NCBI GenBank assembly: GCA_964355365.1
Contig: CAYHEX010000003.1
Location: forward strand, 1 to 44,251
Direction of reading: 5' to 3'
Source of the DNA: an uncultured Solibacteraceae bacterium
GTDB taxonomy: Bacteria > Acidobacteriota > Vicinamibacteria > Vicinamibacterales > SCN-69-37
DNA length: 44,251 nucleotides
This document shows positions 3,229-44,251 of this stretch, in pieces. A program made the translations under genes and the position numbers. The notes below the pieces were generated by a model. That model saw only the letters and a list, made by a program, of their open reading frames with translations. It was not told the origin of the DNA and ran no database searches. Numbering within the stretch: the stretch's first letter is position 1; each line of letters opens with the position of its first letter.

Positions 3229-5526
3229 ATGCGCCCCTCCGCCAGCCACGACGACGCACTGCTCGCCACGGATCTGCACGTCGAGGCCACGTATCGGTTA
3301 ACCGAAGCGTTGGTCGAGGCCGAGAACCGGATGCGGCGGCGCGTCGAGTTGCTGTCGGAAGTGGTCTTCGAAACGGACGCGTCCGGCGCGCTCGTGTTTC
3401 TCAACAGCGCGTGGGCCAGGATCCTCGGCCGGCCAACGGCCGAGTGCCTCGGGCACACGCTGTGCTGCTTCGCCGCCGAGATGGATCGCGATCGGTGCGT
3501 GCTGGCCATGGGGTCGCCGGCGGATCGCGAGGCGGCGCCCCCCCGCCTTCGCCTGCTCCGTGCCGACGGCAGCGCCGCCTGGTTCGAGTTGTCGGCGTCG
3601 CATCTGGCCGACGGCGGCGTGGTCGGCGCCCTGCACGACATCACCAACGAGAAACTCGCGCAGGACGAGCTCGCGAAGCTCTCCCTCGTCGCGAGCTACA
3701 CCGACAACCTCGTCATCATCACCGACCGCGACGGGCGCACCGAGTGGGTGAATCAGGCCTTCATCAACCGGACCGGCTACACGCTTTCCGACATGATCGG
3801 CCGCAAACCCGGCGACCTCCTGCAGGGGCCGGACACCGACACCTCGACCGTTGCCCGCATCGGCGCGCTGCTCGCCGAAGGCCGGTCCTTCAAAGCCGAG
3901 CTGCTCAACTACACGAAGGCCGGCGAATCGTATTGGGTCTCGTTCCAGATCACGCCGATCCGCAACGCGGACGGCCGCGTGGAGCGCTTCGTGTCGATCC
4001 AGACGGATTCCACGGAGTTGCGCCGCACGCAGCGTGAGCTCGAGACCGCCAAAGAACACGCCGAGTCCGCCAGCGACGCCAAGACCCAGTTTCTGGCGAC
4101 GATCAGCCATGAGATGCGCACGCCCCTGAATGTCATTCTGGGGTCCACGGACATCGCGCTCGACGGCGCGGGCACGGACGACGACGTGCAGCCGCATCTC
4201 GAGCGCATCAACGCCAACGCGGAGATCCTGCTGCGTCTCATCAGCGACATGCTCGACGTGTCGAAGATCGAAGCCGGCCAGTTCGACTTCGAGCGCATCC
4301 CGGTCAAGCTGCGCGCCTGTCTGCAGCGCGCGGTATCGCCGATCGCGGACCGCGCGCGCGCGAAGGGCCTGGATTTCCGGCTGACGGTCGGTGAATCGCT
4401 ACCGGCCCAGATCATGGGCGACCCGGATCGCCTGCGGCAAATCGTGACGAACCTCGCCGAGAATGCGATCAAGTTCACCGACGCCGGCTACGTGCGCATC
4501 GACGCGTCGCGCCTCGATGCGGGCTCGAACGACAGCCCCTGCCTCGAAATTCGTGTGGTCGACTCCGGCTCCGGCATTTCGCCCGACGCGCAGGCACGGA
4601 TCTTCAAGCGTTTCGAACAGGGCGACAGTTCGACCACGCGCCGCAAGGGCGGCGCCGGACTGGGCCTCAACATCGTCAAGTCTTTGGTCGAGGCGCTCGG
4701 CGGCCATGTGAGCGTGCGGAGCGCGGTCGGCGCCGGCGCCGACTTCCGCGTGGTGCTGCCGCTCGAAGCCGCCCTCGAGACACCGGCGCGCGCGTCGAAC
4801 GACGGCGACGCGCGACCCGGGGCGGGCACGCCGATGGCGGCGCGGCCCGCGACCGTGCTCATCGCGGAAGACACGGACGCGAACTTCCTCATCCTCGATT
4901 TTTTCCTCACGAAGGCCGGCTACACCGTGAAGCGCGCGTCGACCGGCGTCGACGCCGTGAGGGCGTCGCGGAGTGCGGATCTGGTCCTGATGGACATCGA
5001 GATGCCGGAGATCGACGGCCTCGAGGCGACGCGGCGGATCCGCCGCCACGAGGCCACGTCCGGCCGTCAGCCCGTGCCGATTCTCGCCCTGACCGCGCAC
5101 GCGGTGCAGGGATACCGCGAGCGCTGTCTGTCAGCGGGGTGCTCGGGCTATCTGTCGAAGCCGATCCGCAAACACGCGCTGCTCGACGCCGTGGCCGCAG
5201 CACTCGAGAACGTGCGAGGGGGCGACGCGGACATCGTGCGTGTCAGCGCCGAACTCGCGCATCTGGCGCCGACGTTCGTCGCGCACTGCCGCACCGAGCA
5301 CGGAAGACTGCGCGCCGCGGTGGCGGCGGGCGACTGGATGACCGCCGAGCGCGTGGGCCACAGCCTCAAGGGCGCCGGCCCGTCGATCGGCTTCGACGAA
5401 GTCGGCCGGTTGGGCTGCGATATCGAAGCGGCCGCGCGCGCGGAACATGGGGGCGACGTTCTGCGCGCGCTCAACCGACTCACGATCCATCTCGATCGCG
5501 CGCACATCGTCTGCGTCGCGCAGTAG
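3229..5526 (+). CDS. Cytoplasmic hybrid histidine kinase PAS-PAS-HisKA-HATPase-REC-Hpt
   Basis: Two PAS domains, H box ISHEMRTPLN, N box NLAENAIKFT, G boxes DSGSGI and GAGLGL, REC IAEDT/LMDIEMP/SKP, Hpt GHSLKGA. No TM segments. Confidence 0.93.
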   Translation: MRPSASHDDALLATDLHVEATYRLTEALVEAENRMRRRVELLSEVVFETDASGALVFLNSAWARILGRPTAECLGHTLCCFAAEMDRDRCVLAMGSPADREAAPPRLRLLRADGSAAWFELSASHLADGGVVGALHDITNEKLAQDELAKLSLVASYTDNLVIITDRDGRTEWVNQAFINRTGYTLSDMIGRKPGDLLQGPDTDTSTVARIGALLAEGRSFKAELLNYTKAGESYWVSFQITPIRNADGRVERFVSIQTDSTELRRTQRELETAKEHAESASDAKTQFLATISHEMRTPLNVILGSTDIALDGAGTDDDVQPHLERINANAEILLRLISDMLDVSKIEAGQFDFERIPVKLRACLQRAVSPIADRARAKGLDFRLTVGESLPAQIMGDPDRLRQIVTNLAENAIKFTDAGYVRIDASRLDAGSNDSPCLEIRVVDSGSGISPDAQARIFKRFEQGDSSTTRRKGGAGLGLNIVKSLVEALGGHVSVRSAVGAGADFRVVLPLEAALETPARASNDGDARPGAGTPMAARPATVLIAEDTDANFLILDFFLTKAGYTVKRASTGVDAVRASRSADLVLMDIEMPEIDGLEATRRIRRHEATSGRQPVPILALTAHAVQGYRERCLSAGCSGYLSKPIRKHALLDAVAAALENVRGGDADIVRVSAELAHLAPTFVAHCRTEHGRLRAAVAAGDWMTAERVGHSLKGAGPSIGFDEVGRLGCDIEAAARAEHGGDVLRALNRLTIHLDRAHIVCVAQ

Positions 5527-5702: not shown

Positions 5703-8687
5703 ATGCTGTCCACTGTATTTCGCAGAACGTCGCTCTCAACGAAAGTGGGGCTGCTTTCGCTCACCTTGTGCTTCATCAGCGTGTTGGTGCTGGCCAAGTA
5801 TGCCCAGGGAAAACTGACCGCGGACCTCACGCGAACCACCGGCGCGCAGTTGGCCTCTGCCGCAGCGTACGCCGCGCAAGACGTCAGCCTGGACCTTGCC
5901 ACCCAATTGACCGCCATTCAGTCGAGCGCACGCCTGATCGTCGCCGACGACCTCAGCGGGTCGCTCCGCGACCATTCACGGGCCATGCAGGCGCTCTTCG
6001 ACACCGGCTTCGTGGCCGTCATGGCAAACGGGGCCGTCACCTACCCGCCGTCACCCAACCCCGCGTCGGAGGGCCTGGCGTGGGCGGAACTCGAGAGCGT
6101 GCGCGCCGCCCTGTCCGGAGTTGGCAGCCCCATCGGTCTGATCGATCTCGCCTCTGGACCGAACCGGAAGGCGATCGCGTTCGCCGCCGCCATTCGCGAC
6201 AACGACCACCGGATCGTCGGCGCGCTTGTCGGCCTCTCGTCCTCAACGGAATCACACGTATTCAACCCATTGCTCCAGAAGGCCTACGGTCAGGCCGGCG
6301 TTTTCGTGATCCTGGACCAGGCACGCGGTCTGCTCGGCGAACGCAGCAGCGCGCAGTCCCGACTGTTGGTCGCTGAGCCGGCTCTCCTGAACACGCGCAC
6401 ACTTTGGCCGTCTTGCGGAGGATACCCAACTGAAATTGGGTCGGGTCGATCGGCCACGCTGGTGGCCGGCGCCAAAGTGCAGTCGACAAACTGGTGTGTC
6501 GTCGTGGCCCTGCCTCTGGAAGAGATCCTTGGGCAGTATCAGGCGCTGAATCAGGGCGTGTACTGGCGCGCATTCTACCTCTCGCTCCCGTTCGGCCTGT
6601 TGACGTTCTGGGCCATGCGTCGCGTGCTCACGCCCCTGTCGCAGGCGATCGCCGGACTCGACGCCATCGACATCACCGACCCGCACGTGACAGGCCTGCC
6701 CGAGACGGGTTCAGGTGAAGTTGGCGCACTCCTCAAGAACGTCAATTTCCTGCTCCGCGCGTTGAAGCAGCGGGAACACGCCCTCTGGGAAAGCCAGGCG
6801 CTGTTTCGCGCCTTCGCTGACACCTCTCCGATCCTGATCGTGCAGACCCGAAGTAGCGGCTCTCTGGGTGAAGAACCCCTCACGGAACGGACCGAGTACA
6901 TCAACCCGGCATTCACGGCCATCCTCGGCTACACGATCGAGGACGTCCCCACGATAGGCGACCTCTCCGCGCTGATGTTCCCGGCTCTCGACGGCCAGAC
7001 TTTCGAACCCTTGTCGGCCTGGTGCGCGGCCAAGGATGGCTCCCGGAAATTCCTGTCCTGGCAGCGCGTCATCAGCCCGGGCGACCAGCAATGGGCGTTC
7101 GGACTCGACCTGACGAGCTGCCAGCTGGCGAACGACTCCCTCAACCTGTTCAAGCGCGCAGTTGAGCAGAGCCCGGTGATGATCGAGATCACCGACCGTC
7201 ACTCGAACCTCGTCTATGTGAACCCCAGGCTCGCAGAAGCCACCGGCTACAGCCGGGAGGAATTGCTGGGGCAGAACCCGCGGATCTTCAGCGGCGGCAC
7301 GATGCCACATGACACGGCCGAGGCCATGTACGAAGAGCTGGTGGCGGGCCGCAATTTCCGCTGCGAGATGAAGAACCGCAAGAAGGACGGCACGCTGCAC
7401 GAGGTCTCGATTTCGGTCTCGCCGATTTTTGACGACCAGAACACCCTGATCAACTTCATCGGCATCAAGGAAGACATCTCCGAACGCAACCGGACCGCGG
7501 CGCTCCTCATTGATGCGGGGCTGAACGCTGAGCGCGCGAGCCGAGCCAAGTCGGCGTTCGTGTCCAATGTCAGCCATGAACTGCGCACGCCGATGAATGC
7601 CGTCGTCGGTTTCGCGCAATTGCTCGAGGCCGACGACACCCTCACCCCGCAGCAGCGGGAATACGTGAGCCAGATCACGGCGGGCGGGCAGCACGTGGTG
7701 GCGCTGGTCAATGACGTGCTCGACCTCTCCACGATCGAGGCCGGAGAACTGCGCGTGACCGTCGAGCCATTCGACCTCGGCGCCGTCATCGCCGAATGCG
7801 AAGCGCTGATTCAACCGCTGGCGGACGACCGGGGCCTCACGCTGCGCACCTCGTGTGCCGCGAACACCAGTGCCGTCGGCGACCGTCTACGCGTGAAACA
7901 GGTCGTGCTCAATCTCATGTCGAACGCCGTCAAGTTCAACGTCCCGAATGGCGACCTGACGGTCGATGTGGCGCAGATCGGGTCGGATCGTGTGCGGATC
8001 ACCGTATCGGATACCGGCGAGGGCATTGCCGCCGCCGACGTGCAGGAGGTCTTCAAGGCGTTCTCTCGACTCCACGCCAAGCACAAACACGTGGAGGGCA
8101 CGGGGATCGGGCTGACGATCAGCCGACAATTGGTCGAGTTGATGGGCGGCACACTGACTCTGTCGAGCCAAATCGGCGTGGGCAGCCAGTTTCGCGTCGA
8201 GCTGGCCTCCGCGGCGGCCCTGCCAGTCGCCCGAGCGACCGCCACCGCTGAGCTGAAAGGCCCCGGGCAATCGACGCGCCGCCATCGCGTGCTGTGCATC
8301 GACGATAGCCCCACCAATCAGGCGTTGATCAAGGGCATCTTCAAGCTGCGGCCGCAGATCGTGCTGGTGCGGGCCGTGACCGGTGCAGATGGCATCGCCT
8401 CGGCGCGCGCCGAGCGCCCCGACCTGATGCTGATCGACATCAATTTGCCGGACATGACCGGCCACCAGGTGCTGCACACGTGCCGGGCTGACGAGCTGCT
8501 GTGCACCGTGCCGGCCATCGCGGTCTCGGCCGACGCGCTCGCGTCGAACGTGGCGCACGGTCTCGAGATGGGGTTCGACGACTACCTGACCAAGCCGCTG
8601 GATCTACAGCGTTTTCTGGCCGTGATCGATTCCTACCTGTCCGACCAGGTGACGACGCTCGATCACGCCGTCGGACCGCCATGTTGA
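5703..8687 (+). CDS. Membrane hybrid histidine kinase: TM-Cache-like-TM-HAMP-PAS-PAS-HisKA-HATPase-REC
   Basis: Two TM helices flank an extracytoplasmic domain. HAMP-like PLSQAIAG...EVGALLKNVN, PAS with [54 protein letters not shown]. Confidence 0.92.
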   Translation: MLSTVFRRTSLSTKVGLLSLTLCFISVLVLAKYAQGKLTADLTRTTGAQLASAAAYAAQDVSLDLATQLTAIQSSARLIVADDLSGSLRDHSRAMQALFDTGFVAVMANGAVTYPPSPNPASEGLAWAELESVRAALSGVGSPIGLIDLASGPNRKAIAFAAAIRDNDHRIVGALVGLSSSTESHVFNPLLQKAYGQAGVFVILDQARGLLGERSSAQSRLLVAEPALLNTRTLWPSCGGYPTEIGSGRSATLVAGAKVQSTNWCVVVALPLEEILGQYQALNQGVYWRAFYLSLPFGLLTFWAMRRVLTPLSQAIAGLDAIDITDPHVTGLPETGSGEVGALLKNVNFLLRALKQREHALWESQALFRAFADTSPILIVQTRSSGSLGEEPLTERTEYINPAFTAILGYTIEDVPTIGDLSALMFPALDGQTFEPLSAWCAAKDGSRKFLSWQRVISPGDQQWAFGLDLTSCQLANDSLNLFKRAVEQSPVMIEITDRHSNLVYVNPRLAEATGYSREELLGQNPRIFSGGTMPHDTAEAMYEELVAGRNFRCEMKNRKKDGTLHEVSISVSPIFDDQNTLINFIGIKEDISERNRTAALLIDAGLNAERASRAKSAFVSNVSHELRTPMNAVVGFAQLLEADDTLTPQQREYVSQITAGGQHVVALVNDVLDLSTIEAGELRVTVEPFDLGAVIAECEALIQPLADDRGLTLRTSCAANTSAVGDRLRVKQVVLNLMSNAVKFNVPNGDLTVDVAQIGSDRVRITVSDTGEGIAAADVQEVFKAFSRLHAKHKHVEGTGIGLTISRQLVELMGGTLTLSSQIGVGSQFRVELASAAALPVARATATAELKGPGQSTRRHRVLCIDDSPTNQALIKGIFKLRPQIVLVRAVTGADGIASARAERPDLMLIDINLPDMTGHQVLHTCRADELLCTVPAIAVSADALASNVAHGLEMGFDDYLTKPLDLQRFLAVIDSYLSDQVTTLDHAVGPPC

Positions 8688-9457
8688 GGTGGTGTTGCTA
8701 TTGCCAGCAGTTCCAGGGAGAGGCGCCCCCTTACGACAATCTCGTCTCCACCCATGGATGCTGCGCGTCCTGCGAGGCCCAGGCCATTGATTCCACCGAG
8801 TCCGATTTGGCGCACGCGCGAATCTTGGCGCGCCTGCAAGCAAGACTCGGGAAGGCGGGACAAAGCGGTGACCTTGTGGCCGCCGGACATCTCATCGAAG
8901 AGGCCAGCGCCGACCACGTGAGGGCCGTTGACGTCCTGATGGGGATTGTCGCGCCGTTGCTGGACCAGATCGGCAAGGACTGGGAACGCGGCTTCATCAC
9001 CGTGGCCGAAGGGCATCCGTTCATCGCCTTCAGCGAAGCGCTGGTGGAGTTAGTCACCACCACCCGGTTCCAGGACCAGCCTGCCGACGCTCGGCCCTTG
9101 GACCGCCCGGACGCTTTCCTCATGACCGCCGACGGCAATCGCCATACCTTGGCCGTTCGCATTCTGAGCTTGTGGCTGATGGACTCTGGCATGCGGACTC
9201 GCGTGCTTGACTCAGGTCTCCCGCTCAAGGACTTGCTCGCGCGGATTGGTCACGACCGGCCCCGGTTGCTCCTCATCTCGATGGCGCTTGCTGAGCAACG
9301 TCCGGGCGTGGTCACGCTGGTCGAGTGCCTCGCGGCATTACCCGAACCGGTCCGTCCGAGGGTCATCGTCGGGGGCTACGCCGTCAAACTCGGCCACGTC
9401 GACGCGATTCCCGGAGCGGAGCTCATCGCCGACATCAGTAGCCTGCGATTGCTTTGA
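8681..9457 (+). CDS. Cobalamin (B12)-binding domain protein, CarH/AerR-like, with N-terminal Cys/His zinc-finger-like motif
   Basis: ATG 8681 overlaps the kinase stop. N-terminal WCCYC...THGCCASC; helical cap PLLDQIGKDWERGFITVAEGH (CarH W-x9-EH motif, here GH); Rossmann domain GNRHTLA, LLLISMA, VIVGG. Confidence 0.82.
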   Translation: MLRWCCYCQQFQGEAPPYDNLVSTHGCCASCEAQAIDSTESDLAHARILARLQARLGKAGQSGDLVAAGHLIEEASADHVRAVDVLMGIVAPLLDQIGKDWERGFITVAEGHPFIAFSEALVELVTTTRFQDQPADARPLDRPDAFLMTADGNRHTLAVRILSLWLMDSGMRTRVLDSGLPLKDLLARIGHDRPRLLLISMALAEQRPGVVTLVECLAALPEPVRPRVIVGGYAVKLGHVDAIPGAELIADISSLRLL

Positions 9458-9510
9458 GCCGGGCCGGTTACATCATCGGCCCTCTCAGACGCCCGACCCG
9501 GTCGGCAGGC

Positions 9511-10185
9511 TTACGCGTCTTCGGGCGCCACGAGTTGGTGGTGCACGGCAAACAGTGCCAGTTCCAGCCGATTCGACACGCCCGTTTTGTCGAACGCGTT
9601 GGTGAGATGACGCTTCACGGTCTCTTCACTGATGCCCAGCCTCGTGGCGATATCGCGATTGGTGCCGCCCTGGACGACCGTGCGGACCACGTCGAGTTCG
9701 CGCGGCGTCAGCCCGAAGGTGTTCTTCGGCGCCGGCGCGGCTTCCGCCATGAGTTCTTTGAGCACGCCCACAAGGTTGATCACCTCGCCGCCGCGCAGCC
9801 AGTAGTGCCCGGCCATGACGGAGCGAATGCTCGCCGTCAGGTCTTCCGCCACGGCCGTCTTCAACACGATGCCGCGCGCGCCCAACTGCAGCGCCTCGAG
9901 CACCTGCTTGCGCTCGATCTCGCTCGTGAGCAGAATCGTGCGCAGATACGACGACGCGTCGGTGAGTTCGCGCAGGGCGTCGAGCCCGGGCATGCGCGGC
10001 ATCGACAGATCGAGCAACAGCACGTCAGGCTTCAGTTGCCCGATCAACTTCACGGCGTCCTCACCGTCCGACGCCTCGCCAACGACCGTCAACCCGGGCT
10101 GTGACGCCAGCAGGTTGCGCACGCCGATGCGCACCACGGGGTGGTCGTCAGCCACGACGATTCGCACCGGTCCGGACGTACTCAT
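9511..10185 (-). CDS. NarL/FixJ family response regulator (REC + LuxR HTH)
   Basis: IVVADDHPVVRIG, LLLDLSMP, LTPRELDVV...TNRDIATRLGISEETVKRHL. Start overlaps the upstream kinase stop by 4 nt. Confidence 0.95.
   Translation of the reverse strand: MSTSGPVRIVVADDHPVVRIGVRNLLASQPGLTVVGEASDGEDAVKLIGQLKPDVLLLDLSMPRMPGLDALRELTDASSYLRTILLTSEIERKQVLEALQLGARGIVLKTAVAEDLTASIRSVMAGHYWLRGGEVINLVGVLKELMAEAAPAPKNTFGLTPRELDVVRTVVQGGTNRDIATRLGISEETVKRHLTNAFDKTGVSNRLELALFAVHHQLVAPEDA
9672..9702 (+). repeat. 31-bp exact direct repeat, copy 2 (inside the NarL gene)
   Basis: Identical to 5581-5611, 4091 bp away. Confidence 0.9.
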
Positions 10186-13169
10186 GTCGACTCCTCGCGC
10201 AACCGCCGCATGACGTGCACGGCGCGCTGAAATTCCTGTCGTAGCTCGTCAATGCGCGCATTCCACGGGAGCGTGTCCCCGTTGGCGACGGCGTGTTCGA
10301 TCGCCGCCGCCAGCGCGCCGCCGCTGTGCACTCCCATCATCTCGCAGCCGCCGCGCAGCGAATGCGATAGCCGCTGCACTTCCGGCCAATTCTCGTCAGC
10401 CACCGCTGCAGCCATTTGATCGAGCAGGCCGACCGAGTGCTCCACGAACACCTGGCACGCATCGTCCCAGCCCTCGCCCATCGCCTCGCGCACGATGACC
10501 AGGCGTGCCCACAGCGTCGCGTCCTCCGGCAGATCGGGCGGCGGCGACACCGCCGGCGCGTCGACGAACGCCGGGACCCAGCGCGCCAGCATGTCGGCCA
10601 CCTCGGCGATGCGCACGGGCTTGGCGAGATAGTCATCCATGCCCGCCATCAGACACCGTTGACGCTCGCCAGACAGGGCATTCGCCGTCATGGCAATGAT
10701 CGGCAGCCGGCGGCCGGGCGCCTCGGCCTGTCGAATGTGCCGCGCGGCGGCGTAGCCATCCATGTGGGGCATCTGACAGTCCATCAGCACGACGTCGTAC
10801 GGCACACGCGTCACCGCCGCCACGGCTTCGGCGCCGTCACCGAGGTAGTCGGCGCGCACGCCCAGCCGCTTGAGCATGGCCAGCGCCACCATTTGATTGG
10901 CCGGGTTGTCTTCCACCACGAGCGCGCGCACCTGCCCGCGTGCGGCATTCACCATGGTGACCGGCGCGAGCCGCTCTGTCCGGGCCCGCTCGACGCTGAC
11001 CGCATCGGCGTGCGCCATGGGCAGGATGACCGTGAACCGGCTGCCCTGCCCGACCACGCTGGCGACGTCGATGGTGCCGCCCATGAGCCGCGCCAGCCGA
11101 TCGCAGATGGCCAGACCGAGTCCCGTGCCGCCATAGCGGCGGCTCATCGAGCTGTCGGCCTGGGAAAAGGGCCGGAACAACCGCGCGAGCACGTCGGGCG
11201 CGATGCCCACGCCCGTGTCCGACACGCGGAACCGGACGCGAACGGTCTGCGCGTCCGCGTCGGCCACATCCACCGCGATGCGCACTTCGCCCTGTTCGGT
11301 GAACTTCACGGCGTTACCCACAAGATTCGTGAGCACCTGCCGCACGCGACCAGGATCCGATACCACCGCGGCCGGCACGGCCGGGTCCACGTCGCCGACG
11401 AGGCGCAGGCCATGAGCCTTCGCCGCCGGACCGAGCAACTCGACGACGTCCTGCACGACATCAGACGGCGCAAAGACGAGCGCCTCGAGTTCCATCTGCC
11501 CGGCCTCGACCTTCGAGAAATCGAGGATGTCGTTGATGATCGTGAGCAGCGACTCGCCGGCCCCGCGAACGGTCTCGGCGAACTCCCGCTGCGTCCTGGA
11601 GAGTGGCGTATCGAGCAGCAGGCCCGTCAGACCGATCACGGAGTTCATCGGCGTCCGGATCTCGTGGCTCATCGTCGCGAGGAAGTCGGACTTGGCCGCG
11701 GCGGCCGCTTCGGCCGCTTCCTTGGCGCGACGCAACGCCTCCTCGGACTCGCGGCGGGCCGTGATGTCGCGGATGAACAAGCTGTAGAGCACCGGCAATC
11801 CGCCCGGCCCGCCGTCACCGTCGCGGCCGCGCGCGCGAGTGACGGGCGAGATCGAGACCTCGACGGGAAACTCGCGGCCGTCGCGATGCACCGCGGACAG
11901 TTCGATGCGCCGACCGAGCATCCGACTCTCGCGGCCGCGTTGGTACCGCTCGAGTCCCTCTTCGTGCGCTCGACGCTGCGCGAGGGGCACGACCAGATCG
12001 CCCAACAGACGCCCGATCGCCTCGGCGGCCGTCCACCCGAACGTGCGTTCCGCCTGCGCGTTCCACGCATGCACGATGCCGCGTCCATCGACGGTCACCA
12101 CGGCGTCGAGGGCCGAGTCGATGATCAGCCGCGTGCGTTCCTCGCTCAGTCGCAGGGCTTCTTCCGAGCGACGACGCTCCAGGAACTGGCTGATCTGGCT
12201 GCGCAGCGAATCCAACACCGCGAGCGACTGTGCATCCAGCGGCGTGGCGTCGGAGCCGAAGATCTCGATGACGCCGGCGACGTTGGGGCTGACACCGCTG
12301 TCGGCCGTCCCCATGATCGGCATGGCGAATCCGCTGCGCAGACCGGCCGTCTTGGCGGCGCTCGCACGCGGGCCGGTCGGGCCCTCGGTGGTGTCGTCGA
12401 CCCAGACCGACTTCCCGGTCGCCCAGACGCGCCCGGGCAATCCTTCCATCGGCGCGAACTGCTGCGTGCGCGTGACCTCGGCGAATCCGGGCGCGGCGCC
12501 GGGCCGCGTCCACGTGTCGACGCAGAACAGCGTGCGCCCTTCGCGCCGGTCCACGCGCCAGACGGCGCCGAAGGCCCCCCCGGCCACGTCGCACAACGCC
12601 TCGACGATCCCGGCCGCGGCGTCTTCGAGCGTCGTGGCCTCGGCGAGCACACGCGTCACGGCAAACTGCGCGGCCAGCGTCTGCAGCGTGCGGCGCTGCT
12701 CAGCGCGCTGCGTGGCGAGCCGGTCGGCCAATTTCGCCACGTCGGCGATCGAGACGTCTTTCGTCTGCAGCACGAACAGGAAGTCGCGATCCGACGGCGA
12801 CAGATCCGAGAGCGTCACGCCGTAGCGCGCCAGATCCGCCTGGCTCGTGATCCAGGGTTTCCCGAGAAAGACGAGCACGTCTTCGCCCGCGCGCAGAAAC
12901 TGGCCGCGCAGCGGCAGACCGGTGGCGATGACGTCGATAAAGGTGCTCGACGTCGCGCGGCGCACAAGTTCGTCGAAATCGAATGGCGTGGCCGGCCGCA
13001 CGATCCGGACGCGGCTCGAGAGCGGTTGCCCCACACGGGCGGTCGGGTCGGCGTTTGCCCAGGCGGGCCCGAGATAGCGAATGGTCAACGAGCGGTCGAA
13101 CGCGACGGTCATGGGACCAATCGCGCCCAATTGTTCGAGACCGAGCGCCAGCTCCGGGACCTGTGTCAC
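10182..13169 (-). CDS. H-NOX-associated hybrid histidine kinase: HNOBA-GAF-PAS-HisKA-HATPase-REC-Hpt
   Basis: N-terminus resembles the sGC HNOBA PAS/coiled coil (FDRSLTI, LRGQF, LVFLGKPW, LARYGVTLSD). GAF with GLPGRVWATG, FixL-like PAS, MSHEIRTPMN, NLVGNAVKFT, GTGLGL, LMDCQMP, Hpt SHSLRGG. GTG start overlaps the H-NOX stop. Confidence 0.92.
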   Translation of the reverse strand: MTQVPELALGLEQLGAIGPMTVAFDRSLTIRYLGPAWANADPTARVGQPLSSRVRIVRPATPFDFDELVRRATSSTFIDVIATGLPLRGQFLRAGEDVLVFLGKPWITSQADLARYGVTLSDLSPSDRDFLFVLQTKDVSIADVAKLADRLATQRAEQRRTLQTLAAQFAVTRVLAEATTLEDAAAGIVEALCDVAGGAFGAVWRVDRREGRTLFCVDTWTRPGAAPGFAEVTRTQQFAPMEGLPGRVWATGKSVWVDDTTEGPTGPRASAAKTAGLRSGFAMPIMGTADSGVSPNVAGVIEIFGSDATPLDAQSLAVLDSLRSQISQFLERRRSEEALRLSEERTRLIIDSALDAVVTVDGRGIVHAWNAQAERTFGWTAAEAIGRLLGDLVVPLAQRRAHEEGLERYQRGRESRMLGRRIELSAVHRDGREFPVEVSISPVTRARGRDGDGGPGGLPVLYSLFIRDITARRESEEALRRAKEAAEAAAAAKSDFLATMSHEIRTPMNSVIGLTGLLLDTPLSRTQREFAETVRGAGESLLTIINDILDFSKVEAGQMELEALVFAPSDVVQDVVELLGPAAKAHGLRLVGDVDPAVPAAVVSDPGRVRQVLTNLVGNAVKFTEQGEVRIAVDVADADAQTVRVRFRVSDTGVGIAPDVLARLFRPFSQADSSMSRRYGGTGLGLAICDRLARLMGGTIDVASVVGQGSRFTVILPMAHADAVSVERARTERLAPVTMVNAARGQVRALVVEDNPANQMVALAMLKRLGVRADYLGDGAEAVAAVTRVPYDVVLMDCQMPHMDGYAAARHIRQAEAPGRRLPIIAMTANALSGERQRCLMAGMDDYLAKPVRIAEVADMLARWVPAFVDAPAVSPPPDLPEDATLWARLVIVREAMGEGWDDACQVFVEHSVGLLDQMAAAVADENWPEVQRLSHSLRGGCEMMGVHSGGALAAAIEHAVANGDTLPWNARIDELRQEFQRAVHVMRRLREEST

Positions 13170-13732
13170 GGGACCGTGGGCGCCGGCGGCTCGAACGTCA
13201 CATCGAACTCGTCATGATCCGCACCGTCATCGCGGCGCACGACGTGCGCCACGGTCACGCGCACGGCGAACATCGTCCCGAGACCGCGGACCAGCCCGAT
13301 CACCATCGGCGAGAGGCCGGGCCGCGTGGACTGGTAATGCAGGCGGAGCCGATCCTCGGCGACGTCCGTGCACCAGAAGGACGGCGGCGCCAGCGCGGGG
13401 AACCCGACCGCAACGTTCGAATGCAGATCGTGGAGATTCAGCATGAATTCACGGAAGGTGCGGCCAGCACGCTGGAAGAGTTCGCCGTAGCCGCGCGACC
13501 CGGTGTAGAGCGTCCAGTATTCGCCGAAGGCTTCGAGCAGTTGATCGGCCGGCAGTTTGAGCGTCTCGCTGGCGGCGGCCACCAGTTGATACGTGACCGC
13601 ATCGGGGTACGACTGCATGCTCAGAAACATCTCGTCGGTCACGCCGGCGCGCTGCTTGATCGTCGTCCAGGCCGCCACCCCGAAGCGCTCCGTAATCAAT
13701 TCTTCCACTGCCTGATTGACCAATCCGTACAT
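13166..13732 (-). CDS. hnoX: H-NOX (heme NO/O2-binding, HNOB) protein
   Basis: MYGLVN start, FGEYW, proximal His in NLHDLH (His104), PPSF proline, YxSxR heme motif (YQSTR). GGAGG upstream of ATG 13732. Confidence 0.95.
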   Translation of the reverse strand: MYGLVNQAVEELITERFGVAAWTTIKQRAGVTDEMFLSMQSYPDAVTYQLVAAASETLKLPADQLLEAFGEYWTLYTGSRGYGELFQRAGRTFREFMLNLHDLHSNVAVGFPALAPPSFWCTDVAEDRLRLHYQSTRPGLSPMVIGLVRGLGTMFAVRVTVAHVVRRDDGADHDEFDVTFEPPAPTVP

Positions 13733-13850
13733 CGGGCCTCCCGGTGCCTCTTGCCCCTTCACTCTATCGTGCGGCGCCGCGGCAATCATCCCACCTTTGC
13801 GGCCGCGTCGGAGGTTGCCGCCTGAGTCAGGGCGCGATAACGTGACACTC

Positions 13851-27023: not shown

Positions 27024-30000
27024 TTAGCGCTTGTTCCGTTCGTGCTCGCAGCCGTCGCCCTTCTTGTGGCCGTTCTTGCCGAGCTCGTGGTCGCACTTGT
27101 CGCCGTTCCCGTGCCGCTCTTCACTGCCCTTGCGGCCCTTCTCGTGATCGCCGTCTTCGCAGCCGTCGCCCTTGGCATGTCCGCTCGGCAGCGTGACCCT
27201 GGTCGAGTCATACAGGGCGCCGTCGTCGACGGGCGTCGCGTGCCGGCCCTGATCGCGGGGCACGCCCACCGTGACCTCGCCCGTGCAGCTGGCGCCGAGG
27301 CTGTCGGCAGCCGTGAAGGTGATGTGATACACACGACCGTTGCCGCGGACCTTGTTGCGTCCGTCGCGCTCGTGTTCGCAGCTGTCATTTTTCTTGTGGC
27401 CCTTCGCGCCACGCTCGTGGTCGCAGCGGTCGCCGTCGCGATGATCGTTGTCATCCTCGCGGTCGCCGACGCGCTCTGCGCGCACCGACGCGGTGCTCGT
27501 CCCGATGCCCTTGCCGTCGACGCTGGTCTCGCCATCGCCGCTGGAATCCGTCGGCTCGTCCTGGAAGATGCTCAGGATCCGGATCGCGATCGGACCACCG
27601 TCCGCGTCCGTCACGCCGTTGATCGTGATCGGCGTCCACTTGTGGTTCGGCGTCCAGAGCAGCGACTGTGACGGCGTCGCGGCCGTGCACACCGGCGTCG
27701 CGTTGGTGATCGTCAGCGTGCCGTTGGTGCTCGTCACGGTGTAGTTCGCCAGCGTGCTGGTCGGATCGGCCAGCGCCGGCACGATCGCATACGCGCCAGG
27801 GACGCGCGATCCGGTGCCGGTCGAACGGTAGGTGGCGGTGATCGCGTCACCGGTCATCACGCCCGTCAGCACGCCATCGAGCGAGGGGTCGGCGGCCAGG
27901 TACGAGCGCGTCGTGTTATTGGCCATGACGGAGAGCGGCGCCGGGGTGATGGTGATGGTCGCCGAGGCCGTGGCCGACAGGTGGTTCTCGTCGCCTGCGA
28001 ATGCGCAGGTCGCCGTGTAGACGCCGGCCTTGACCGGCGTCTGGTCGGCGTAGGTGAGCGTGCCCGTGAGGCCGTCGCTGATGGTGCAGGTCGTGCCGTG
28101 CTGTGTGCCCGTGTAGGTCGCCGTCACCGGCGCCGTCGTCGCGGTGACCGCCTTCTTCGCGATCGTCACCGTGCCGAGCACGGATCTGAACTTGTAGTTA
28201 TCCGACCTCGCCCCATAGCAAATGGTGACCCGTCGCGTGCCCGCGCCGCTGGTCGTCGTGTAGCTGGTCGTGCAGCGGGGCGCGGTGAGCAGCGCGGCCG
28301 CCGTCTCGTCGCCGACGAAGCCGTCGAACTGTGCGGTGATCTCCGGCACGGCGTCGCCGTAGGTCAGCGAGACGCTCGAGGCGGTGATCGTCAGCGGCGC
28401 CGGGGTGATGGTCACCGCCGCCGAGCCCGACACGGCATCGTTGTTCATGTCGCCCGCGAAGTCGCAGGTCGCCAGGTAAGTGCCCGCCGCCGTCGGCGCA
28501 TCCGCGACCGGACCGTAGAGCGTCGGCGCCACGCCGCTGTAGCTGAGCGTGCCGTCGAACCCGTCGCTCACCGCGCAGGTGGTGCCATGCGCCGTCGCCG
28601 AGTACCTGGCCGTGACCGGCGTGACCGTGACCGTGGCGGGCCTGAGGGCATGAACGCAGGCGTCCACGTCCTGGCTCGACGCGCGTGTCGTCTCCGTCGT
28701 GTCTGTCGTGAAGCTCGCCGTGTTCGTGATGGTCGTGCACTGGCCGGGCACGCCGTCGAACGTCTTCGCATACGTGAACGCGACGGGATTCGTGTCCGCT
28801 GCTGTCACCGTGCCGAGTCGACCCTGCAACGTGTCGTCAACGACCGCGCTGCCGTCGATGGCGCTGATGACCGCGGTTGCGAAGTCCACCGACGTGGACG
28901 CCGACGCCTGGAACGTGCTCCAGGTGGCGGCCACAGTGACCGTCCCGGGCGCCGGCGCGCCCGTGTAGTCGCAGCGGTAGGGCAGTTCATCGTGGCTGCC
29001 CGCCGGAATGCTCACGGTGCCACCGCCGGTCAGCACGCACGTGCCGCCGTTGTTCACGGCGCTCGTCACCACGATGTTGTCGATGGCGGTGTTGCCGGGA
29101 TTCGACAGGCGGATCGCGCCCGTGGTCTGCCACGCGGAATCGACGCCCGCGTCATGCTGCATCGTCACGGTGTAGTTGAACGTCGCGGGGCCGCCGGCGG
29201 TCTTTACCTGCGTGTGGTCGACCGTCTTCGTGATGTTCCACCCGAACGCGCGCGTCAGGCTCGGGAATGTCGTCGCGGTGAGGATCACGGTGTTCGTGCT
29301 GCAGCCGGTCGGGCAGTAGGGGTTCGTGTCGCCAAAGTCCGGCGCCTGGATGGAATCACCCGGATGCAGCGTGATCGTGGTCGTGCCCTCGACCGGCGCC
29401 GTCGGCTGCCAGTCGGGACCGAACGTGCCCTGCGTGAGCGTGACCGACTGGGTCGACGAGCTGGTGGCAAACCCGGAGTAGGCAAACGACACGCAGCCCT
29501 CGTCGCCGGTCTGCGCACTGGCCGTGCCGCCGTCAACGCCGCTCGCCGTCACCGGCCAGTGCGGCATGAGCGGTTCGCCCGTGTTCTGGAGGCCGTCGCC
29601 ATTCAGGTCGTTGAACGCGCACACGGAGACGTGCGCGGCTTTCGGCGCTGACGCCGTGACCGTGAAGGCGAGGGTCTTGCTCGCGGAGGTGCAGAAGCCG
29701 AATGTCTTCCGGTCGCCGTCCTCCGGGCAGTTCGAGGGGTTGTAGTTGGCCAACGGCGTGAACCACACCTTGTAGCCGCCGACCTGGTTGGGTGTGTCGG
29801 CGAAGGGCGCCAACTGGACGGGTGTCTTGCTGCTGCTGGTGACGCCTTTGGTGTGGTAGCACGCGGGGGTGCCGTATCCGCCGGCGGTGTCGGCGGGCAC
29901 GCCGTTCATCTTCCCGCTGGACACGGTGATCACGCGGCACTTGATGTCGTCCGACGACAGCAACTGGGTGCCGCTCGAGTCGGTCACCATGAAGTAGTAA

Positions 30001-30194
30001 TTGCCGTTGGGTTTGATCGGGTCGCCCGACCCGTTGCTCACGTACACGAGATCTTTGGCGGCGTAGAGGTTGGCGCTGACCGTCGACCCGGTTGCGAGGG
30101 TTGTGGCCCACGCGCCTTCAACAATCGCCGCGCGCACTGAGGAAACGGCGAGGCCGGTCAGGATTCCGACGCACAGTACTTTCCACAACTTCAT
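27024..30194 (-). CDS. Large secreted Thr-rich surface protein with SdrD-B-like, MBG and Ig-like domains and His/Cys/charged C-terminal repeats
   Basis: Signal peptide MKLWKVLCVGILTGLAVSSVRA; FNDLNGDGLQNTGEP (SdrD-B-like); ITPAPLTITA..YGDAVP and ITPAPLSVMANN (MBG-like); LWTPNHK...RAER...GNGRVY domain. GGAG precedes ATG 30194. Confidence 0.85.
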   Translation of the reverse strand: MKLWKVLCVGILTGLAVSSVRAAIVEGAWATTLATGSTVSANLYAAKDLVYVSNGSGDPIKPNGNYYFMVTDSSGTQLLSSDDIKCRVITVSSGKMNGVPADTAGGYGTPACYHTKGVTSSSKTPVQLAPFADTPNQVGGYKVWFTPLANYNPSNCPEDGDRKTFGFCTSASKTLAFTVTASAPKAAHVSVCAFNDLNGDGLQNTGEPLMPHWPVTASGVDGGTASAQTGDEGCVSFAYSGFATSSSTQSVTLTQGTFGPDWQPTAPVEGTTTITLHPGDSIQAPDFGDTNPYCPTGCSTNTVILTATTFPSLTRAFGWNITKTVDHTQVKTAGGPATFNYTVTMQHDAGVDSAWQTTGAIRLSNPGNTAIDNIVVTSAVNNGGTCVLTGGGTVSIPAGSHDELPYRCDYTGAPAPGTVTVAATWSTFQASASTSVDFATAVISAIDGSAVVDDTLQGRLGTVTAADTNPVAFTYAKTFDGVPGQCTTITNTASFTTDTTETTRASSQDVDACVHALRPATVTVTPVTARYSATAHGTTCAVSDGFDGTLSYSGVAPTLYGPVADAPTAAGTYLATCDFAGDMNNDAVSGSAAVTITPAPLTITASSVSLTYGDAVPEITAQFDGFVGDETAAALLTAPRCTTSYTTTSGAGTRRVTICYGARSDNYKFRSVLGTVTIAKKAVTATTAPVTATYTGTQHGTTCTISDGLTGTLTYADQTPVKAGVYTATCAFAGDENHLSATASATITITPAPLSVMANNTTRSYLAADPSLDGVLTGVMTGDAITATYRSTGTGSRVPGAYAIVPALADPTSTLANYTVTSTNGTLTITNATPVCTAATPSQSLLWTPNHKWTPITINGVTDADGGPIAIRILSIFQDEPTDSSGDGETSVDGKGIGTSTASVRAERVGDREDDNDHRDGDRCDHERGAKGHKKNDSCEHERDGRNKVRGNGRVYHITFTAADSLGASCTGEVTVGVPRDQGRHATPVDDGALYDSTRVTLPSGHAKGDGCEDGDHEKGRKGSEERHGNGDKCDHELGKNGHKKGDGCEHERNKR

Positions 30195-30342
30195 TGGGCT
30201 CATCTCCACCGTGCGCACCGAAGCCTGCGCGCAGCGCAACTATGGCGCTGGAGGCCCGTGCGCGGCCATGCCACGTAGGTGGTATGGCACCTGGGGAACA
30301 ACCCCGGGCAACCTCCCAGCCGCATACCCGGTCTAACCGGCC

Positions 30343-33448: not shown

Positions 33449-33706
33449 ATGGCAGCGCGCTCATCGGCCTTGGCGAACTGGACACCCGAGCAAGTGGCGC
33501 AGGGACGTCGCTGGGCCAAGGCATGGCAGGACGCAGCTCCCCGGCTTGAAGCCATTCGACGGCGGGAGTTGCGTGAACTGGATGCCTTCACCGCCATTTC
33601 CTGGCTCTGCGGCTCGGCCGACTACTCTGAGGCGCCACGGGCGCCGAAGCCCACGTCCGGCCTGATCGAACAACAGCGACTCTTCACACAACTGCGGCGG
33701 CCGTGA
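33449..33706 (+). CDS. Small hypothetical protein, putative antitoxin/partner of the downstream nucleotidyltransferase
   Basis: 85 aa helical ORF; GTGA overlap with the NTase gene; TAGAAT -10-like box at 33437-33442 just before the ATG. Confidence 0.7.
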   Translation: MAARSSALANWTPEQVAQGRRWAKAWQDAAPRLEAIRRRELRELDAFTAISWLCGSADYSEAPRAPKPTSGLIEQQRLFTQLRRP

Positions 33707-34269
33707 ACGCGCTCATTCAAGCGGCGGCGCAACTGCAGGCCGTGTGTGTCCGCCACGACTGGCGGTTCTGTTTCATCGGTGGACTGGCCGTTCAGCGCTG
33801 GGGTGAACCGCGAGAAACGGTGGACGTTGACCTCACGCTCCTGACGGGCTTCGGAGACGAAGCCCGCTTCGTCTCGGTGTTGATGGCCGCCTTTCCGTCG
33901 AGGATCGACGACGCCGCACAGTTTGCCGCCGTCAATCGTGTGCTGCTGCTACGCGCGGCGTCTGGTGTGGGCCTCGACATTGCCCTCGGGGGCCTGCCGT
34001 TCGAAGAATTGGCCGTGAGCCGCTCGAGCCTGTTTACGTTTCCTCCGGACGTTCCGCTCCGAACCTGCTCGGCCGAGGATCTCATCGTGCTCAAGGCCTT
34101 CGCCGATCGGCCCAAGGACTGGCTCGATATCGACGGCATCATCGTTCGACAAGACGCCGTGCTGGACTGGCGCTACATCCACACTCAACTCGCGCCCCTG
34201 GCGGAACTCAAGGACGCACCCGAACTCGTCAGCAAACTGGAACGCCGCCGCACGGACCTGAAGGAATAG
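33703..34269 (+). CDS. Pol-beta superfamily nucleotidyltransferase (AbiEii/DUF6036-like)
   Basis: FIGGLAV...PRETVDVDL (GG + RxTxDxD), third Asp in GLDIAL, C-terminal SAEDLIVLKAFADRPKDWLDI. Confidence 0.85.
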   Translation: MNALIQAAAQLQAVCVRHDWRFCFIGGLAVQRWGEPRETVDVDLTLLTGFGDEARFVSVLMAAFPSRIDDAAQFAAVNRVLLLRAASGVGLDIALGGLPFEELAVSRSSLFTFPPDVPLRTCSAEDLIVLKAFADRPKDWLDIDGIIVRQDAVLDWRYIHTQLAPLAELKDAPELVSKLERRRTDLKE

Positions 34270-43763: not shown

Positions 43764-44021
43764 TCAGTCGATCGTCAGGTCGAACACCTCGAGGAGCGCA
43801 TCGCCGAGCGCGGTGAGCTGTTGTGCCGGAAGCCGCGACAACGGGCCCTTGACGAGACGGCGATTGTCGATCGCGCGCACCTGATCGATCAACGCGTCCG
43901 AGTCCTTCTTCAACGATCCGGCGGCTCGAATTCGAAACCTGAGTGGCTCGGCGTCATCGACGAGTTGGGTCGTCAGCGGCACCACGAGGGTTGACGGATG
44001 CTCCGCATCCAGGAGCGCCTG
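43764..44021 (-). pseudogene. PemK/MazF family toxin, 5'-truncated
   Basis: QALLDAEHPSTLVVPLTT...SDALIDQVRAIDNRRL. The expected N-terminal RGEIW...KxRP segment is missing and replaced by unrelated sequence. Confidence 0.8.
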
Positions 44022-44251
44022 CCCGGCAGCGCGCTCGCCGAGAAGGCGGGCATGGCGCTCGCCGACTTCTACTACGACCGCCGCGACATGTCCCTGGCGG
44101 CCGAGGCGTACGACCTCTTCGTGCAGAACTACCCGCGCTCCACGCAGGCGGACAAGGCGCGCCTGCGCCTGATCGCCTCGCACTGCTCCGGCTACCGAGG
44201 CCCGGAGTTCGATGACAAGGGACTGCTGGAAGCATCCAGCAAGCTGCGTGC
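43998..44251 (+). CDS. Partial TPR/BamD-like protein fragment running off the window end
   Basis: Open frame not in the ORF track (no stop codon): MLRIQERLPGSALAEKAGMALADFYYDRRDMSLAAEAYDLFVQNYPRSTQADKARLRL, with TPR-type YPxSxxA motif and strong GC3 codon bias. Confidence 0.65.
   Translation, partial: MLRIQERLPGSALAEKAGMALADFYYDRRDMSLAAEAYDLFVQNYPRSTQADKARLRLIASHCSGYRGPEFDDKGLLEASSKLR

Follow-up and report, generated by a model that had tools for sequence, protein, structure and literature searches.

The window analyzed here is the whole 44,251-nucleotide stretch of contig CAYHEX010000003.1 (positions 1 to 44,251 of the forward strand; assembly GCA_964355365.1) from an uncultured Solibacteraceae bacterium. 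Our subject is a gene on the plus strand that encodes a protein of 258 amino acids (aa), here called P0001, and runs from an ATG at 8681-8683 to a TGA at 9455-9457. It belongs to a so far unnamed family, to which we give the name ZnF-CBD. The gene and its parts are as follows:

8681..9457, plus strand: ZnF-CBD gene (P0001, 258 aa), from the open reading frame (ORF) call, homologues, codon-position GC and RNA-library contigs
8681..8791, plus strand: N-terminal Cys4(+His) zinc-ribbon-like knob, residues 1-37, from the model, the invariance of its Cys residues and sub-threshold Pfam matches
8798..9070, plus strand: four-helix bundle (B12-binding_2), residues 40-130, with W101...G111-H112 (8981-9016), from Pfam and the model
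9113..9424, plus strand: Rossmann-type B12-binding domain, residues 145-248, with G152-N153-x-H155 (9134-9145), from Pfam and the model

The GC content of the three codon positions of 8681-9457 (0.67/0.46/0.78) has the pattern of a coding frame. An in-frame GTG upstream, at 8501, appears in the ORF-finder listing and was ruled out as the start because M-L-x-W-C opens all relatives; an antisense ORF at 8731-9228, picked by a heuristic based on GC at the third codon position (GC3), is spurious, the homology lying entirely on the plus strand. GC3 of the gene (0.78) differs too little from that of its neighbours (0.81-0.90) for horizontal transfer to be argued from composition.

P0001 has the architecture of CarH-type cobalamin proteins: a four-helix bundle (B12-binding_2) and then a Rossmann domain (B12-binding). 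Pfam B12-binding_2 (PF02607) scores 33.1 bits against a cut-off of 23, and an AlphaFold2 model built on an alignment of 33 sequences (mean predicted local distance difference test score, pLDDT, 84) lays out three short strands and a helix (residues 2-37), the four-helix bundle (40-130) and the Rossmann domain (145-248). The top Foldseek matches of this model are the cobalamin-binding domains of TtCarH, CtMerR and SasPcob (E 6e-10 to 5e-9); by sequence, the nearest solved proteins are the B12 domain of CtMerR (8jbs, 4e-7), the TtCarH domain (1e-4), AerR (4e-4) and photocobilin (8j2w/x, 2e-3). The NCBIfam CarH model gives 34 bits against a cut-off of 400, with the match limited to model positions 82-270, the cobalamin-binding part. 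No helix-turn-helix (HTH) was found in P0001 by Pfam at E<=0.1, and no DNA-binding domain was detected. An earlier sequence-only reading of this stretch had placed a CxxC...HxxCxxC knob where MerR proteins have their HTH, followed by a CarH/AerR-type cobalamin-binding domain, and had supposed that the protein does not bind DNA; residues, Pfam and model confirm the former, and the domain searches agree with the latter.

Details of the signature motifs are read directly from the sequence. The W-x9-E-H motif is present in P0001 as W-x9-GH (W101, 8981-8983; E110; G111, 9011-9013; H112): the Trp and the His are kept and the Glu is Gly. The lower-ligand motif E/D-x-H-x-x-G appears as NxHxxA (N153, 9137-9139; R; H155, 9143-9145; T; L; A158), in which H155, the presumed lower axial ligand, is kept, the acidic residue is Asn, as it is family-wide, and the Gly is Ala in P0001. 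The sequence-only reading had described both motifs in this form, with both His retained, and had inferred altered upper-ligand chemistry. G111 is the one real departure; the Asn is the rule in the family (200/205 members) and nothing peculiar to P0001. Of the published SignatureFinder signature (GxxW, EH, GxxH, GxxxP), as set out in part of PMC11796333, P0001 carries GxxW (G98..W101) and GxxH (G152..H155).

The N-terminus reads W4 C5 C6 Y7 C8 ... T24 H25 G26 C27 C28 A29 S30 C31, that is, CxxC-x16-HxxCxxC. Both knuckles (C5-x2-C8 and C28-x2-C31) are invariant in all 205 full-length members of the family, and the conserved set of the knob is C5, C8, H25, C28 and C31; C6 and C27 are not conserved. 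Other conserved residues of the knob are aromatic or acidic (W4, Y7, F11, E14). Within the N-terminal 45 residues no Pfam family rises above threshold, and the sub-threshold matches are all C4 zinc ribbons (HVO_0758, 0.009; ClpX ZBD, 0.019; anti-TRAP; HypA). The knob stands in the position of the MerR HTH of CarH and, by analogy, most likely serves as a protein-contact module. A comparison of residues 1-42 with the Protein Atlas gave scores of 0.78, below the useful range, and the look-alikes (small unnamed proteins and the N-termini of some REC/PAS proteins) are leads only.

The family is large. A word-indexed search returned 94 homologues, nearly all of 250-285 aa and mostly ~40-56% identical over full length, and searching 1.84 billion cluster representatives with a profile of 33 sequences (P0001 and 32 selected from these 94 matches) gave 308 at E<=1e-30; among the 150 profile matches listed, most align from profile position 1. 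Members come from Acidobacteriota, Gemmatimonadota, Myxococcota and Alpha- and Gammaproteobacteria, with many from Bradyrhizobium. Conservation was counted over 205 full-length proteins with an N-terminus, drawn from 241 collected: C5, C8, C28 and C31 are present in 205 each, H25 in 198, W101 and E111 in 192 each, H112 in 182, N153 in 200 and H155 in 204. As judged from these sequences, the Cys4(+His) knob and Asn-x-His are the defining features of the family.

P0001 departs from the family at one of the 31 columns conserved at >=85%, namely E111->G. One deviation is the family median, which refutes the unique decay that the sequence-only reading had named as an outcome that would sink it. A Glu is found at column 111 in all 47 genome loci having that column (of the 48 loci described below). 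The Gly is shared by P0002, a protein of the same length and 91% identical to P0001 (22 differences, mostly N-terminal; residues 179-247 are identical), and by P0127, with 36% identity. A further member, P0224 (metagenomic, 407 aa), is a ZnF-CBD protein fused to a C-terminal REC domain (Response_reg 68 bits). It is the only fusion seen: none of 6876 candidates proved to be a longer fused form when searched with P0001 at E<=0.001, though this is weak as evidence.

In the relatives the gene frequently has a partner. A scan of one genome per species gave 53 loci, of which the 48 with an essentially full-length match were examined (the partial loci L046, L047 and L051-L053 being left out). In 21 of the 48 a gene for a heme oxygenase fusion protein of ~420 aa (HO-fusion) lies immediately upstream on the same strand, and in most of these its stop sits inside an ATG/GTG-(C/T)TG-A overlap with the ZnF-CBD start. 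The 21 include the near-identical loci L009/L010, L018/L019 and L020/L024/L025, as well as one frameshifted HO-fusion gene (L021, 5633-7004, in two frames) and one cut by a contig end (L020). The fusion is itself a family, with 131 matches, nearly all of ~420 aa with PF01126.

The N-terminal ~200 residues of the partner are a canonical-looking heme oxygenase. PF01126 scores 38-64 bits in the eight proteins scanned (cut-off 23); the match to HmuO (E 1e-11) aligns H16 with the HmuO proximal His; this position is conserved together with a GSQNGG distal-helix motif; and residues 1-206 of the model of the L007 protein (pLDDT 85) match solved heme oxygenases with Z 23-24. What follows resembles a photoglobin. 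Compared exhaustively by fold, residues 226-335 of the L007 protein match the biliverdin-binding globin of photocobilin 8j2w_B with Z 11.1 (root-mean-square deviation 2.6, 108 aligned residues, 22% identity), a value below the ~13 under which helical matches may be common arrangements; phycobiliproteins (Z 9.4, 8.4) and the RsbR globin (Z 8-8.9) come next. T261-x-x-D264, a motif of the [C/S/T]-x-x-D bilin-contact type, is invariant in the partner globin, and D264 may correspond to Asp270 of photocobilin, to judge from the aligned ranges only. The remainder of the partner, residues ~340-422 (L007:6756-7004), is a helical segment of ~85 aa with invariant A368, S373-A374, D377-E378, W392, D395 and R398-F399, for which no fold or family match was found. 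Considered as a pair, HO-fusion and ZnF-CBD look like a photocobilin split over two genes and equipped with its own supply of biliverdin. A complex prediction for the L007 ZnF-CBD protein with HO-fusion residues 205-422 returned a score of 0.00 in a run without controls, and speaks neither for nor against binding.

The distribution of the pair is uneven. In the family tree (from which L026, L039 and L044, partial or broken, were left out) HO-linked members are spread over phyla, and members lacking the partner group into one clade of Bradyrhizobium type (14 rows) and one of Acidobacteriaceae (6 rows), the others being singletons; among the last, the window sequence and P0002 sit on a long stem. 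The Bradyrhizobium orphans (L003, L028, L029, L032, L034, L035 and others) retain all motifs intact and have no conserved neighbour. Broken copies of ZnF-CBD also occur: L044 (Granulicella sp. L46, 7001-7755) carries a frameshift, and L039 (7001-7543) stops at 181 aa.

In the window the place of the partner is taken by a kinase gene:

5703..8687, plus strand: hybrid histidine kinase, 994 aa (Pfam: weak dCache/HAMP, then PAS, HisKA, HATPase_c and REC)
8681..8687, plus strand: ATGTTGA, in which the sensor start overlaps the kinase stop TGA at 8685-8687 (from the sequence; 7 shared bases)
8636..8687, plus strand: last ~15 kinase codons (...DQVTTLDHAVGPPC and stop), read as a relic of an HO-fusion 3′ end (from ungapped identity to HO-fusion tails)

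The kinase tail resembles the 3′ end of the partner gene. When the bases at -45..-1 before the ATG were compared in register, and without gaps, with HO-fusion tails, mean identity was 0.47 and the maximum 0.67 (L007); loci lacking the fusion gave a mean of 0.33 and a maximum of 0.47, and shuffled window sequence gave 0.27 (Mann-Whitney p 3e-6 on -45..-7). The same comparison gives no signal at -90..-46. The stretch lies beyond the REC domain of the kinase, and relics comparable to it are found at L006, L008 and L022, behind other genes. Seven columns tell HO-linked members apart from orphans, and in each of them P0001 carries the residue of the HO-linked group. No HO-fusion gene is present in the window, and none was found in the rest of its genome (90.5% complete, 509 contigs) with the L007 protein, a 16-sequence profile or PF01126, the last a search whose controls were positive in 3/14 genomes.

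A +1-frame stop is present at the junction of 45 out of 49 sequences, 44 times as TGA and once as TAA, in orphan loci as well. It is near-universal because the start, coding for Met-Leu-(Lys/Arg/Asn/Ser/Thr), is conserved, and therefore any upstream ORF in that frame would end at the junction. Since the kinase tail resembles the 3′ end of the partner gene, and no heme oxygenase was found in the genome, the coupling of the kinase to the sensor gene is probably secondary. For the kinase, a search of 12 related genomes gave no close orthologue, the best match reaching 38% identity over residues 487-982; the sensor gene was not found in any of 24 genomes of the same family, five of them of the same genus. 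A 6-bp stem (ACCGCC/GGTGGT) at 8675-8693 encloses the ATGTTGA; it was not seen, by eye, to be conserved in the junctions of relatives.

Genes of two-component systems recur beside the family. Around 16 HO-linked loci the neighbour scan covered 54 of the 100 heuristic ORFs, and around 25 loci without HO-fusion it covered 48 of 123. Two-component genes flank the pair in six HO-linked loci: in five (L002, L005, L007, L013, L023) a gene with a REC domain lies directly upstream of the HO-fusion gene, 10-82 bases away, and L048 has a REC-EAL-like gene behind the CBD gene. At loci without HO-fusion such genes (REC-EAL, hybrid kinase) were seen only in L006 and L008, the rest having no conserved neighbour among the ORFs scanned. 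Because REC-domain genes recur beside the family, and P0224 is a REC fusion, a functional link of ZnF-CBD to two-component signalling is plausible. Synteny of the window kinases with the hybrid kinase upstream in L002, L006, L007 and L008 was considered and not used, the identity being a generic 31-33%.

Photocobilins provide the mechanistic template. As described in passages of PMC10979010, these proteins hold adenosylcobalamin base-off/His-on, with the adenosyl ribose stacked on a conserved Trp and tied by a Glu-His pair into a polar network across a head-to-tail dimer; the globin domain holds biliverdin edge to edge with the corrin. On illumination the adenosyl group is freed, the helix bearing Glu and His moves by ~2.4 Å and the dimer falls apart.

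Together the above analyses favor, on balance and with moderate confidence, the view that P0001 is a zinc-knob-capped cobalamin sensor: the B12 half, now orphaned and standing behind a hybrid kinase, of a photocobilin system that is split over two genes and makes its own bilin. The anatomy, the family, the partner's domains (by fold), the relic and the recurring REC neighbours are observations; the cofactor, the metal, the light response and the output of this system we infer. By analogy with CarH and the photocobilins, cobalamin would bind ZnF-CBD base-off/His-on via H155, and W101 and the E111-H112 helix would cap the upper (adenosyl) ligand and form the dimer contact. Light would cleave the Co-C bond and move the E111-H112 helix, so that the oligomeric state, or the contacts with partners, would change. 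In the relatives the globin of HO-fusion would supply the bilin half in trans. In the genome studied here the partner gene would have been deleted, its last ~15 codons surviving as the tail of a kinase that now ends at the old overlap. With E111G, P0001, otherwise intact, would have lost the glutamate that contacts the adenosyl ribose and is the carboxylate of the polar network; binding of a cobalamin is probably retained, with upper-ligand and dimer chemistry weaker or changed. The probable targets of P0001 are two-component proteins (REC domains) and not DNA.

The genome carries two genes for PduO-type adenosyltransferases and one cobalamin riboswitch; a CobA-type enzyme was not found in it. 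The stretch 8200-9500 is present in lake/freshwater metagenomes of eight studies besides the possible source, and a DNA contig of another study spans 8633-9675 with zero differences. Contigs from the RNA libraries of two studies match the sensor gene exactly (8840-8990, 9048-9198, 9035-9184), another covers 9212-9443 with two differing bases, and further RNA contigs lie inside the kinase.

Several observations weigh against this view. On the side of the cofactor, Pfam B12-binding (PF02310) gives 24.1 bits in P0001, under its curated cut-off of 32.1. The published light-sensor signature partly fails: EH reads GH, GxxxP reads D177..P181 in the alignment to 5c8a (for the signature as it appears in part of PMC11796333), and the acidic residue of E/DxH is Asn throughout the family. 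Judged by these residues, the family could hold another tetrapyrrole, or no ligand. On the side of the partner, the photoglobin assignment is by fold alone, a profile search with the C-terminal half of the partner gave no match in the PDB at E<=10, and no link to photocobilins was found for that half at the level of sequence. Moreover, 27 of the 48 loci lack both the partner and any conserved neighbour (three of these 27 carry a partner-gene relic), and HO-fusion was not found in the five orphan-locus genomes searched (three Bradyrhizobium, L028, L032 and L034, and two Acidobacteriota, L044 and L036); evidently the family can work alone, which the photocobilin analogy does not explain. Given 90.5% completeness in 509 contigs, the partner of P0001 could still be encoded elsewhere in its genome. 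Finally, no RNA contig bridges the kinase/sensor junction at 8681, and RNA libraries may carry DNA.

Downstream of the sensor gene, and on the other strand, lies a signalling operon:

9511-13789, minus strand: H-NOX / hybrid kinase / LuxR operon, converging on the sensor gene across a 53-base spacer (Pfam)
13166-13789, minus strand: H-NOX gene (Pfam)
10182-13169, minus strand: HNOBA-GAF-PAS-HisKA-HATPase-REC-Hpt hybrid kinase, 995 aa (Pfam)
9511-10185, minus strand: LuxR-type response regulator (Pfam)

Positions 3229-26556 of the window form an unusually dense two-component block, in which at least 14 genes, distributed over both strands, encode kinases, hybrid kinases or receiver proteins. 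The PAS domains of 5703-8687 ('...LLGQNPRIFSGG...') and 3229-5526 ('...IGRKPGDLLQG...') read like light-oxygen-voltage (LOV) domains lacking the flavin-binding Cys of the LOV consensus. Elsewhere in the window are an AbiEii-like nucleotidyltransferase ORF (33703-34269, plus strand), a PemK/MazF-like toxin ORF (43764-44183, minus strand) and a 1071-aa protein (27024-30239, minus strand) whose sole Pfam match is to MBG_2 (YGX-type) repeats.

The sequence-only reading offered a different interpretation: a sensor based on B12 (or heme) whose upper-ligand chemistry is altered, which would serve to regulate the upstream kinase by direct contact and would sense nitric oxide (NO) or redox via cobalamin or the zinc-thiolate site alongside H-NOX. 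The overlap of start and stop, the Gly in place of the adenosyl-contacting Glu, the association of the family with REC domains and an H-NOX/HNOBA-kinase/LuxR operon lying 54 bases past the sensor stop all fit it. The overlap is there, as that reading had said, but the kinase does not look like a designed partner: the junction is inherited from the HO-fusion/ZnF-CBD pair, whose upstream member is a heme oxygenase with a photoglobin-like domain, a +1 stop is found regardless of the neighbour, the kinase tail resembles a relic of the lost gene, and in none of the relatives does a kinase end at this junction. As features of the whole family, N-x-H and the Cys4 knob are no adaptation of this locus. 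Nor is NO sensing borne out, since the H-NOX operon is convergent on the opposite strand and none of the 102 neighbour proteins of relatives that were scanned has an H-NOX domain. We regard this interpretation as improbable. Slightly less probable again is that the CBD-like fold holds another tetrapyrrole, biliverdin or heme from the neighbouring heme oxygenase, with Asn-x-His reflecting the change of ligand. Asn replaces E/D in nearly all members, the Pfam B12-binding match of P0001 is sub-threshold and a tight coupling links the family to an enzyme that makes biliverdin; against this, the family retains the corrin/adenosyl-contacting His (204/205), GxxH, GxxW and W-x9-EH, P0001 is structurally closest to the cobalamin-bound domains of CarH, CtMerR and photocobilin, and the partner has a bilin-type globin of its own.

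Two further possibilities concern the knob and the fate of the gene. Were the knob a nucleic-acid-binding finger, the protein would be a CarH-like, light-controlled regulator of transcription or RNA whose DNA-binding head is new; the knob stands exactly in the place of the MerR HTH of CarH, no other part of the protein is as conserved, and orphans without a conserved neighbour would need an autonomous output. Its likeness to DNA-binding fingers, however, is nowhere above threshold, its weak matches are to C4 ribbons with protein-contact or structural roles (ClpX, anti-TRAP, HypA), and its conserved residues are aromatic and acidic (W4, Y7, F11, E14), so we consider this quite unlikely. Least probable of all is that the gene is a functionless leftover, drifting since the partner was lost. 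Loss of the partner, a substitution (E111G) that strikes a key residue, decayed copies elsewhere (frameshifted L044, truncated L039) and absence from all 24 genomes of the same family could be read in that way, but the frame is intact, 1/31 conserved columns has changed, P0002 at 91% identity keeps both the length and G111, the unrelated P0127 has G111 too, exact matches exist in RNA libraries, and lake metagenomes of several studies contain the locus.

A broader reading, which we put forward as a speculation that is unlikely to hold in full, is the following: ZnF-CBD would be a distinct class of B12 photoreceptor adaptor whose invariant knob is the output module and docks on REC domains, so that light acts directly on two-component phosphorelays; the ancestral HO-photoglobin would add a red/far-red biliverdin channel; and E111G orphans would have been rewired to a hybrid kinase with a non-adenosyl upper ligand. 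Such orphans could then be sensors of redox or of small ligands, and not pure light sensors. B12 photoreception is a young field, with experimental examples in CarH/LitR, AerR/PpaA and, since 2024, the fused photocobilins. The present work points to a large, multi-phylum family in which the putative cobalamin half is separate and bears a Cys4 knob and Asn-x-His, and in which the putative bilin half is fused to the bilin-making enzyme. A natural two-component version of a dual-chromophore photoreceptor would be of interest both for studies of mechanism and for optogenetic design, and the window member would be a natural test of the cobalamin half and the zinc knob on their own, after loss of the bilin half.

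The pairing of heme oxygenase, globin and B12 protein is already in print, and the fold-based photoglobin assignment is in line with what has been published. Passages of Schneider et al. (PMC8717448) list a Heme_oxygenase + photoglobin architecture and report stand-alone photoglobins adjoining B12-binding_2/B12-binding genes, and a 2026 paper (PMC13446030) describes, in the part concerned with them, such pairs as homologous to the two chromophore domains of photocobilins. The word 'zinc' has no occurrence in the main texts of PMC8717448, PMC11796333 and PMC10151467, and no paper was found in which 'zinc ribbon' occurs together with B12-binding or CarH. Neither the N-x-H motif nor the 7-nt overlap, the REC fusion or the orphaned forms, at which no search was aimed, were met with in the relevant passages of the cited papers.

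With CarH/LitR (TtCarH; 5C8A, 5C8D, 8C31) P0001 shares the four-helix bundle and Rossmann domain (Foldseek E 6e-10, TM score 0.67 on the target) as well as the Trp, the His and the lower-ligand His; unlike them it has no MerR HTH, and has Asn for Glu175 and Gly for Glu141. AerR/PpaA (7TE2; sequence match E 4e-4) offers the parallel of a stand-alone cobalamin-binding domain that acts via a protein partner and not on DNA, but it is without the extra zinc knob of P0001, for which no CrtJ/PpsR context was seen. The neighbourhood theme of the relatives (heme oxygenase, bilin-binding globin and B12-binding protein) is that of the corresponding passages of PMC8717448 and of Rockwell et al. 2023 (PMC10151467). 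A further parallel is with the photocobilins (SasPcob, AbDPcob; 8J2W/8J2X/8J2Y), which, in the parts of Zhang et al. 2024 (PMC10979010) drawn on here, have a CarH-type cobalamin-binding domain working with a photoglobin, and to which the P0001 model is matched by Foldseek at E 1.7e-9 (8j2w). In contrast to photocobilins, the chromophore domains of the relatives are on separate, overlapping genes, with the globin fused to heme oxygenase, ZnF-CBD has an N-terminal Cys4 knob and Asn-x-His for E/D-x-His, and the window member stands without a globin partner and with Gly for the E of the EH motif.

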